Assembly: GCA_012690745.1 (NCBI GenBank)
Contig: GCA_012690745.1_4086.2
Origin: a phage
DNA length: 64,000 nucleotides
Direction: 5' to 3' (one strand)
The notes beneath the pieces are model-generated. The model was not told the DNA's origin, did no database searches, and worked only from the letters and a program-made list of their open reading frames with translations. Both the position numbers and the translations under genes were made by a program. This document shows positions 62,239 through 63,113 of this stretch, one piece after another. Within the stretch, counting starts at the first letter, position 1. Each line of letters begins with the position of its first letter.

Positions 62239-62518
62239 TGAAATAAATCTTACAGGATATTTTTTACAAGAATCAATGATTAAATTTAGTGAAAAATTTT
62301 CAGTACTGGATGGTATCGAAATGTGGCATGTCAAACCACTGTTCCACACTTTCAGTAAAGAGCACAAAATGTTATTGACTGAAGCGAGTAAATCAAATAA
62401 CATATGTGAAATCAAAATTGGTGTAAATGTCTATAAAGGGATGGTTATCTTTTTTGACAATAACAGCAACTACTTTTATATTGTTAAGGAGCATTACGTT
62501 GACAAATACAAATACTAA
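62231..62518 (+). CDS. hypothetical protein
   Basis: Trimmed from track 62219 (TTG) to ATG 62231. Confidence 0.5.
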   Translation: MCDEINLTGYFLQESMIKFSEKFSVLDGIEMWHVKPLFHTFSKEHKMLLTEASKSNNICEIKIGVNVYKGMVIFFDNNSNYFYIVKEHYVDKYKY

Positions 62519-63113
62519 TACATACTTCCGTTATCTTCGCTTAGGTCTTTCCCTACGTCCGATCCGTGGAAAGTGCGATTCACTCGCTGACCTTGACTAT
62601 GCATATGCATTACATCATGAAGGTGTACAGTATGTATTGGGTGATTATGGTGAATTTGAAGAAACAAATGACAGTACTGGAATTAATGCTGGTGTAGAAA
62701 ATCTTAACAACATTGCTAACAGTTCTCGCCATGACATTGTGTTACAGATTCAAAACTTTATTGAGCAGCACACAGGTAAACGTGTTTGGTGCTATGTCGG
62801 TACTGATGCACAAATGTCAATTTCATTCGGTAACGATGAAGGATATGTTGCACAGCTTATTATGGATTTTGAATCTGAAGAGAAGTTTTTAGAATTCAAA
62901 GAAAAGATTATTCAGTCACTTGTTGATATGGGTATCCCCGAAGATAAAATGCCAGAAGTTCAAAACATTGATGAATTTGTTTTGATTCCATCTGATGAGA
63001 AATATGATGCAATGTTTACTGCCCTTAATATTCCAGGAGTTATTGTGGAGTACTTTGATGATGGTGATGATAGTATCTATATCGATCTAGATGACGATGA
63101 CGACGATGAATAA
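62427..63113 (+). CDS. highly acidic protein with poly-Asp C-terminal tail (start uncertain)
   Basis: Track ORF; ends IYIDLDDDDDDE; 5' 92 nt overlap upstream gene out of frame, true start may be downstream. Confidence 0.45.
   Translation: MSIKGWLSFLTITATTFILLRSITLTNTNTNTYFRYLRLGLSLRPIRGKCDSLADLDYAYALHHEGVQYVLGDYGEFEETNDSTGINAGVENLNNIANSSRHDIVLQIQNFIEQHTGKRVWCYVGTDAQMSISFGNDEGYVAQLIMDFESEEKFLEFKEKIIQSLVDMGIPEDKMPEVQNIDEFVLIPSDEKYDAMFTALNIPGVIVEYFDDGDDSIYIDLDDDDDDE

Follow-up and report, generated by a model that had tools for sequence, protein, structure and literature searches.

Gp421 of an Asteriusvirus jumbo coliphage, a conserved acidic protein and possible early polyanionic decoy

The gene considered here lies near the 3' end of a stretch of phage DNA of 64,000 nucleotides (GenBank assembly GCA_012690745.1, contig GCA_012690745.1_4086.2), which is called the window in what follows. 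It codes for a small, strongly acidic protein, gp421 in the nomenclature of phage 121Q. We propose tentatively that gp421 could be an early polyanionic decoy, directed at a conserved partner that binds nucleic acids. This explanation fits best because the protein is probably early, is not part of the virion, has no catalytic signature, combines a clade-specific polyanionic surface with a disordered tail, and evolves slowly. Over the 4 kb around the gene, identity is 99.4% with the Escherichia phages vB_EcoM_G17 and Sharanji and 99.2% with 121Q and phAPEC6 (jumbo myoviruses of 350-370 kb, genus Asteriusvirus), and the window is assigned by sequence to an Asteriusvirus (121Q/G17-like) jumbo coliphage. 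In dozens of genomes the protein is listed as a "hypothetical protein", and a literature search by accession or locus tag returned nothing on any of its orthologues. New in the present analysis are a corrected start, the delineation of a neutral sister clade, the lack of a solved-structure match, the evidence from selection and promoters, and an argument from the evolution of charge.

It is important to establish where the protein begins. The initial annotation had placed it at 62427-63113. An open reading frame (ORF) with these limits is present on the + strand, its product is strongly acidic, and its C-terminal end is indeed IYIDLDDDDDDE (DLDDDDDDE). The start, however, has to be moved, and the true start is almost certainly the TTG at 62499 rather than the ATG at 62427. 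The elements concerned are as follows.

62499..63113, + strand: coding sequence of the acidic protein, 204 amino acid residues and a stop codon, equivalent to 121Q gp421, G17_00504 and RaK2 ORF451; PHROG 15575
62427..62498, + strand: 24-codon 5' extension of the longest ORF, within gp420 (62219/62231-62518) in another frame
62487..62492, + strand: Shine-Dalgarno sequence AAGGAG, 6 nt before the TTG at 62499, read off the sequence

The TTG is preferred because the ATG start of the RaK2 orthologue is aligned with 62499 and has a stop codon four codons upstream of it, because the extension overlaps gp420, and because the extension is not conserved, being of variable length or missing among the gene calls for homologues. 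The annotations of gp421 in 121Q and G17 start at the equivalent of TTG 62499, 72 nt inside 62427. The codons 62427..62498 are probably not translated as part of gp421, and the version of 228 residues starting at 62427, given by metagenome gene callers as well as by the initial annotation, was rejected on conservation in favor of 62499. The start of phAPEC6 gp390c, a TTG at window position 62637 giving 158 residues, was also rejected; it removes 46 residues, and residues 9-46 are still conserved in homologues of 25% identity. At least one GenBank record, that of phAPEC6, thus gives a wrong start for gp421. Paralogues of gp421 were not found within the window.

The protein of 204 residues has an isoelectric point (pI) of 4.06, a net charge of -30 and an Asp plus Glu content of 21.1%, with 25 Asp and 18 Glu (43 acidic residues) against 7 Lys and 6 Arg (13 basic residues). 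For the 228-residue ORF the pI is 4.14, the net charge -28 and the Asp plus Glu content 18.9%. The initial annotation had suggested a DNA-mimic or anti-defence protein and called for a calculation of pI and charge; the calculation bears out the strong acidity, and the size, pI and net charge of gp421 are inside the range of known DNA mimics. Gp421 is thus a small protein with a large excess of Asp and Glu and a low pI, as expected of a DNA mimic. The window has 133 non-overlapping + strand ORFs, with a median pI of 5.28 and a median net charge of -0.03 per residue; among them the 228-residue form is the sixth most negative at -0.123 per residue, and the 204-residue form would place about third at -0.147. 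Its C-terminus is unique in this set: gp421 alone carries eight acidic residues among the last 12, and the next highest value, reached by one ORF, is six.

Relatives were collected by a word-indexed protein search, which gave 22 close relatives, and by a profile search run exhaustively over 1.8 billion cluster representatives, which gave 43. The family falls into two groups, an acidic RaK2-like group and a more distant, near-neutral one. The RaK2-like group (P0001-P0029, with P0013 and P0022 left out as frameshifted or truncated calls) is acidic without exception. Because all of these approximately 27 orthologues, down to about 25% identity, have a net charge between -14 and -34, and most have acidic tails, the acidity of gp421 is not due to chance. 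The distant group (P0030-P0063, later extended) has pI values from about 4.9 to 9.3 and no acidic tail, with the exception of P0040, in which the C-terminus is mildly acidic (tail net charge -6). Many of its members possess an extra N-terminal region or domain of 60-270 residues. The relationship of the two groups is nevertheless clear from their alignment with hhalign, which gives a probability of 99.6% and an E-value of 9e-24 over residues 12-186. The family core can be written as ...G-h-x-h-x-P-h-x-G...HDGVQY...RHH...IWV.GGG.Q.Q.FFGN..GY.AILYLD...F..F..P.V., and residues Y45, H78 (of the RHH motif), F110, G111, G115 and F173 are near-invariant family-wide. No catalytic-looking motif stands out in the family alignment.

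The charge is distributed unevenly along the chain: -12 in the core, -7 in a clade-specific insertion, -12 in the tail and +4 in the first 27 residues. The description of the product as acidic throughout is therefore accurate for residues 28-204 and fails for the first 27, which are basic. The segments of the protein are the following.

62523..62573, + strand: arginine-rich segment YFRYLRLGLSLRPIRGK, residues 9-25, conserved, with invariant G16, L17, R20, P21, R23 and G24
62532..63056, + strand: conserved α/β domain, residues 12-186, common to near-neutral homologues of other very large phages
62871..62975, + strand: helix-loop segment, residues 125-159, longer and acidic (net charge -7) only in the RaK2-like clade
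63054..63110, + strand: acidic C-terminal tail FDDGDDSIYIDLDDDDDDE, residues 186-204, net charge -12, predicted to be disordered

The basic N-terminal stretch is kept across the RaK2-like clade, while the segment of the neutral-clade homologues aligned to the arginine-rich residues is not basic. The tail is of variable length, is present in most RaK2-like orthologues and is missing from the neutral clade. Its codons are a mixture of GAT and GAC, so it does not represent a slippage repeat. The net charges of the segments were compared for 14 diverse RaK2-like representatives and 27 neutral-clade homologues.

N-terminus (residues 1-27): RaK2-like, +1 to +7; neutral clade, not comparable, of variable length and often with an extra domain
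Core (residues 28-124): RaK2-like, -9 to -15; neutral clade, -8 to +2
Helix-loop (residues 125-159): RaK2-like, -2 to -10, longer; neutral clade, about 0, shorter
C-terminal tail (residue 186 onwards): RaK2-like, -2 to -13; neutral clade, none, with the exception of P0040

At most of the 31 acidic core positions of gp421, the share of acidic residues is 50-100% in the acidic clade and no more than 26% in the neutral clade. Because the neutral-clade homologues have little net charge and lack the tail, the acidity, the tail and the basic N-terminal segment are, judged from the alignments, derived traits of the RaK2-like clade that were acquired together and then kept under strong purifying selection. 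This retention of a derived charge is the main positive argument that the charge is functional. Since gp421 is a compact α/β domain whose homologues from other phages are near-neutral and without the tail, the ancestral function of the fold was not charge mimicry.

Gp421 matches PHROG 15575, a family of unknown function, over its full length (E 2.6e-93, residues 1-200 against positions 1-193 of the 193-position profile). Scans of gp421 against Pfam and NCBIfam gave no match, and the PADLOC scan gave a single weak one, to Cas8c (E 0.006), which is regarded as spurious. Across the 43 family members no weak Pfam match was recurrent. Sequence searches of the PDB with phmmer and with profiles gave best E-values of 0.37-0.52, to unrelated proteins. 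The AlphaFold2 model of gp421 (predicted local distance difference test score, pLDDT, 82.5; predicted template modelling score, pTM, 0.77) shows an α/β domain followed by residues 188-204 with pLDDT below 50, and a model of a neutral-clade member is of higher confidence (pLDDT 93.5, pTM 0.89). For both models a Foldseek search of the PDB gave no significant match (best E 0.39 and 0.9, template modelling (TM) scores not above 0.25), and a search of BFVD with one of the models returned only gp421 orthologues (RaK2, CBB). The predicted fold accordingly has no solved-structure relative, solved DNA mimics included, that is detectable with the tools used. No sequence or fold likeness was seen to Ocr, ArdA, Arn, Gam, Ugi or DMP19, assuming their presence in the PDB copy searched.

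The genes of the distant group are situated on phage contigs of 140-424 kb in IMG/VR and on metagenome contigs of 0.85-1.3 Mb, the latter with almost all genes unannotated. No synteny was found between these contigs and the window, and the neighbors are uninformative. Two of the neutral-clade homologues are on L011 (ENA k141_1011963, 1.28 Mb) and L013 (ENA k141_270024, 0.85 Mb), in which almost all genes are without a Pfam match and arrays of similar-sized small ORFs occur; the cluster tables contain contigs of up to 1.86 Mb. The contigs of 0.85-1.3 Mb could represent phage-like genomes of extreme size or be misassembled.

In a tblastn search, exactly one copy of a gp421 homologue was found in each of 70 phage records, all of them RaK2-like jumbo phages. 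They represent Asteriusvirus, Alcyoneusvirus (RaK2, K64-1), Mimasvirus (GAP32, CBB) and Eneladusvirus (Serratia phage BF and Erwinia and Yersinia phages), and gp421 is also found in Xanthomonas phage XbC2 and in Salmonella 7t3-like phages. The ratio of nonsynonymous to synonymous substitution rates (dN/dS) of gp421 is 0.021 against ph0011, 0.063 against vB_Ec-M-J and 0.19 against RaK2. Among the five genes compared it is the lowest against ph0011 and among the lowest against the other two. Gp421 is under strong purifying selection. It is also a non-virion protein: its orthologue gp390c is missing from the set of 62 proteins detected in virions of phAPEC6. A capsid-targeted internal protein with an N-terminal propeptide was considered and rejected, on this proteome and on the N-terminal segment, which is integral to the fold and is aligned in the neutral clade. 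A signal for import into a phage nucleus is likewise unsupported, as no chmA homologue was found in the close relative Sharanji.

The window has a G+C content of 34% and is densely filled by small + strand ORFs, and gp421 is the last gene of a co-directional + strand block. The neighboring genes and the transcription signals are listed here.

60254..62518, + strand: upstream module of gp416-like, Dam, HxGH nucleotidyltransferase-like, gp419 and gp420 genes
60254-60874, + strand: gp416-like gene
60891-61412, + strand: Dam (PF05869, E 7e-32)
61409-61942, + strand: HxGH nucleotidyltransferase-like gene, N-terminal motif GRINPVHRGH
61945-62238, + strand: gp419
62219/62231-62518, + strand: gp420, overlapping gp421 by 20 nt
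61731..61759, + strand: perfect sigma70 consensus TTGACA-17-TATAAT, inside the nucleotidyltransferase gene
62454..62482, + strand: sigma70-type promoter-like site TTGACA-17-TATATT, 11/12 matches, directly upstream of gp421
63119..63150, + strand: intrinsic terminator-like hairpin (9 bp, 5 G-C pairs) with a T-run, annotated as a terminator in G17

The Dam gene, which had been described as lying next to the acidic gene, is genuine but not adjacent; it lies upstream at a distance of 1.1 kb, and three genes intervene. The order gp416-Dam-nucleotidyltransferase-gp419-(gp420)-gp421 is kept in RaK2, GAP32 and CBB, where the identity of gp421 falls to about 29%; gp420 is missing from the GAP32 and CBB modules. 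The product of 61409-61942, called a cytidylyltransferase, has sub-threshold matches only, to nicotinamide mononucleotide/nicotinic acid mononucleotide (NMN/NaMN) adenylyltransferase, flavin adenine dinucleotide (FAD) synthetase and cytidylyltransferase families, and the gene is mislabelled "ribonucleotide reductase A" in one 121Q record.

The promoter at 61731-61759 could drive gp419, gp420 and gp421. The RaK2 orthologue of the nucleotidyltransferase gene contains the same 12/12 promoter at the same offset (L008 2731-2759), and in GAP32 and CBB a TTGACA-17/18-TAGCAT/TACTAT site is found about 30 nt upstream of the gp421 homologues. For the site at 62454-62482, the predicted transcript start would land inside the Shine-Dalgarno sequence of gp421. 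The hairpin at 63119-63150 is the predicted terminator that closes the gp421 transcription unit. In the whole window, sigma70-type promoters with at least 11/12 matches number 32 on the + strand, where 2.6 are expected, and 7 on the - strand. Because they are enriched on the coding strand, the window has the appearance of an early region transcribed by host RNA polymerase. In CBB, RpoD-like promoters before short hypothetical genes were read as marking early host-takeover genes (PMC5259590), and the distant relative PA5oct depends on host RNA polymerase (PMC7318152). Early expression of gp421 by the host enzyme is a reasonable inference from these sigma70-type promoters, the interpretation given for CBB and the host-polymerase dependence of PA5oct.

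The density of sigma70 promoters is highest at 1-20 kb of the window. Examples of exact or nearly exact TTGACA-16/17-TATAAT sites on the + strand are those at 1338, 4483, 11159, 11751, 12863, 13902 and 14878, and further ones are at 15146, 15505, 15935, 18364, 19892, 44875 and 61731.

The mechanism that we propose can be described as follows. Gp421 would be a soluble, non-virion protein specific to phages of the RaK2/121Q type, likely made early by host RNA polymerase, and it would act non-enzymatically. Its acidic α/β domain and flexible poly-Asp tail would occupy the basic nucleic-acid-binding surface of a partner. The candidate host partner is a DNA- or RNA-binding protein, such as a nucleoid protein, a polymerase, or a nuclease or methylase of a defence system; alternatively, a phage DNA-binding protein could be the partner. 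The arginine-rich N-terminal segment might provide a docking site for the tail, either internally or head-to-tail. The early expression, the decoy action and the identity of the target are what we infer here. It is unlikely that gp421 binds DNA itself, the whole protein being acidic.

A more specific form of the proposal, which we consider unlikely, is that gp421 is a functionally distinct founding branch of a new fold family of very large phages, in which a neutral domain was turned into a polyanionic mimic that neutralizes a conserved host DNA-binding protein early in infection. The conversion would have involved an acidified surface, an inserted acidic segment, a poly-Asp tail and a basic latch at the N-terminus, and the target would be a nucleoid or defence protein. 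If this were correct, gp421 would be a natural example of DNA mimicry evolving from an ordinary fold. If the decoy proposal as such is right, a structurally new, clade-wide mimic of DNA or nucleic acids would join the few that are known, with neutral homologues showing which changes give rise to mimicry. There would then also be a way to study how the nucleus-less RaK2/121Q-type phages handle host DNA-binding proteins early in infection. If the decoy proposal is wrong, gp421 is still a highly constrained, probably early hypothetical protein with no solved-structure match, and a good target for structural and functional work.

Several observations weigh against the decoy. Gp421 has no homology or fold likeness to a characterized DNA mimic or anti-defence protein. 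Five other ORFs of the window have a net charge per residue comparable to or below that of the 228-residue form. The Asp plus Glu content of 21% is below the 29% of Ocr. The strong purifying selection and the single-copy presence throughout the clade suggest a housekeeping rather than an arms-race role; the patchy spread or rapid diversification expected of arms-race genes was not seen in the 70 records or in the dN/dS values of 0.02-0.19. Slow evolution of a universal, single-copy gene is unlike that of most arms-race anti-defence genes. Finally, the fold family is mostly neutral, and an inherited ligand-binding or enzymatic function is equally possible.

It is important to compare gp421 with systems that are functionally characterized. 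Ocr of phage T7 is an all-helical, elongated dimer; gp421 has no sequence or fold match to it and is predicted to be a compact α/β domain with a disordered tail. Both proteins are small, strongly acidic and non-virion, gp421 is probably also early, and the net charges are of the same order, Ocr (gp0.3; anti-restriction, anti-BREX) having 34 acidic and 6 basic residues in 116 (PMC4872106). Ocr is the more acidic (29% against 21%), and gp421 differs further in its basic N-terminal segment and its neutral homologues. DNA mimics form a class by the negative charge of their surfaces, with unrelated folds (PMC3643605, PMC8892312), and acidic phage mimics may target nucleoid proteins, as SPO1 Gp46 does with HU (PMC8892312). 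Gp421 fits the gross physicochemical profile of ArdA, Arn, DMP19, DMP12, Ugi, SAUGI and SPO1 Gp46, but none of these was found by phmmer, by profile hidden Markov models or by Foldseek against the PDB. A disordered, Asp-rich C-terminal tail on a folded domain is shared with E. coli SSB, T7 gp2.5 and T4 gp32. The acidic tails of these proteins compete with DNA or recruit partner proteins. Gp421 differs from proteins of the SSB type in that no oligonucleotide/oligosaccharide-binding (OB) fold is predicted and in that its tail, which ends in DDDE, has no hydrophobic or aromatic residue at its terminus such as SSB and gp2.5 have. The order of secondary structure elements is like that of the GNAT superfamily, but the acetyl-coenzyme A (acetyl-CoA) motif is absent and the matches are non-significant. 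Gp421 is a true member of PHROG 15575 and of the wider unnamed family, which is near-neutral and tail-less and often has an extra N-terminal domain.

Among the alternatives, the retention of an ancestral function is doubtful but comes closest to the decoy in probability. Gp421 would have kept a role of its fold family, as an enzyme or in small-molecule or nucleotide binding, possibly on a GNAT-like scaffold, and the acidity would be secondary, serving solubility or regulation. The domain shared with near-neutral homologues of other huge phages (probability 99.6%) and the strong purifying selection agree with it, and Y45, H78, F110, G111, G115 and F173 could form a pocket. The predicted order of a β-hairpin, helices, three strands, helix, strand, helix and strand resembles GNAT, and weak Foldseek and phmmer matches recur on the GNAT-type structures 6ee1 (C-terminal domain of ICL2), 2ref, 1z9u/1s7l, 6m7g, 4evy, 1ro5, 2pr1 and 9mgu. 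However, all of these matches are non-significant (E 0.4-3, TM below 0.25), the Q/RxxGxG/A acetyl-CoA motif is absent after the fourth strand (GYVAQLIMDF / GYxAILYLD), and for no member was there a GNAT Pfam match (E not above 1) among the families listed. The GNAT likeness of the model can serve as a lead only. Few polar residues are invariant, and the consistent change of charge over the whole surface in one clade would be left unexplained. Another view is that the acidity is functionless: gp421 would be an ordinary conserved hypothetical protein in which the tail is of low complexity and the acidity a matter of composition. In support of that view, 14% of the window ORFs have a pI below 4.5, besides the five that are comparably or more negative per residue. 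The pattern of basic N-terminus, acidic core and acidic tail is, however, kept over about 75% divergence and absent from the sister clade, dN/dS falls to 0.02 with the tail included, and the mixed GAT/GAC codons speak against a slippage repeat; this view is improbable.

Two further explanations take the upstream genes into account. Gp421 might be an accessory subunit or chaperone of a phage DNA-modification module (Dam, nucleotidyltransferase, gp416, gp419), with the tail docking on a phage DNA-binding protein. The conservation of the gene order from Asteriusvirus to Mimasvirus, although identity is about 29%, would be explained in this way; the 20-nt overlap of gp421 with gp420 suggests translational coupling, slow evolution fits co-evolution with a phage partner, and acidic C-terminal docking tails are present in E. 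coli SSB, T7 gp2.5 and T4 gp32. Against this, a separate promoter precedes the gene in GAP32 and CBB, in the window it is followed by a terminator of its own, the synteny of the module is not seen around the neutral-clade homologues, and neither an OB fold nor an aromatic or hydrophobic tail end is present. We consider such a role rather unlikely. The suggestion made for this gene by the initial annotation was close to that of a classical anti-restriction mimic of B-form DNA, which would block type I restriction-modification, BREX or a similar system and complement the Dam of the operon. An acidic, small, non-virion and probably early protein with a conserved linkage to Dam is compatible with this, the missing homology is not decisive as known mimics differ in fold, and generalists like Ocr need not co-evolve with their targets. 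The protein nevertheless resembles neither the Ocr and ArdA families nor any solved structure, and the model predicts a compact α/β domain with a floppy tail and no elongated, rigid array of charges. Its dN/dS of 0.02-0.19 and its universal presence in a clade infecting Escherichia, Klebsiella, Erwinia, Yersinia and Xanthomonas, with differing defence repertoires, are also unfavorable, and the link to Dam is positional only. The probability of a classical anti-restriction function appears low.

Downstream of the terminator, the + strand ORFs 63160-63435, 63432-63698 and 63689-64000, of about 90-100 residues, begin with a similar pattern, MNYK..L.Y..I.DL.H..., which suggests tandem paralogues. 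Of these, gp422 (63160-63435), the first, is fast-evolving, with dN/dS of 0.31-0.37, and is about 55% identical between Asteriusviruses in which gp421 is 86-98% identical.

Three stretches of the window, 700-2132, 9909-10802 and 14192-14935, have no + strand ORF of 60 residues or more and a slightly elevated G+C content of 37-39%. They gave no Rfam match and are not copies, by blastn and nhmmer, of another non-coding, ORF-poor element of about 480 nt, which is located at 59740-60225 (+ strand) directly upstream of the gp416-Dam-...-gp421 module. The G+C content of the latter is 40-43%, compared with about 30% in its flanks. Its nucleotide identity to GAP32, CBB, Serratia phage BF and Yersinia phages is 66-76%, while the flanking proteins are about 29% identical. 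RaK2-like genomes contain two to four or more copies, of which only one is in the window; 38 near-full-length copies were found in IMG/VR loci, and paralogous and orthologous copies are present in loci L008, L009, L010, L015-L019 and L023-L066. The element is unannotated in most records, and it has no match to Rfam 15 or to tRNA or tmRNA. The consensus fold of 30 sequences calculated with RNAalifold contains 65 pairs, 98% of them canonical and 41 with compensatory double changes; in register-shifted controls 38-45% of pairs are canonical and 8-14 have compensatory double changes. This element probably represents a new structured RNA of about 450-540 nt, present in multiple copies and specific to this clade of jumbo phages.

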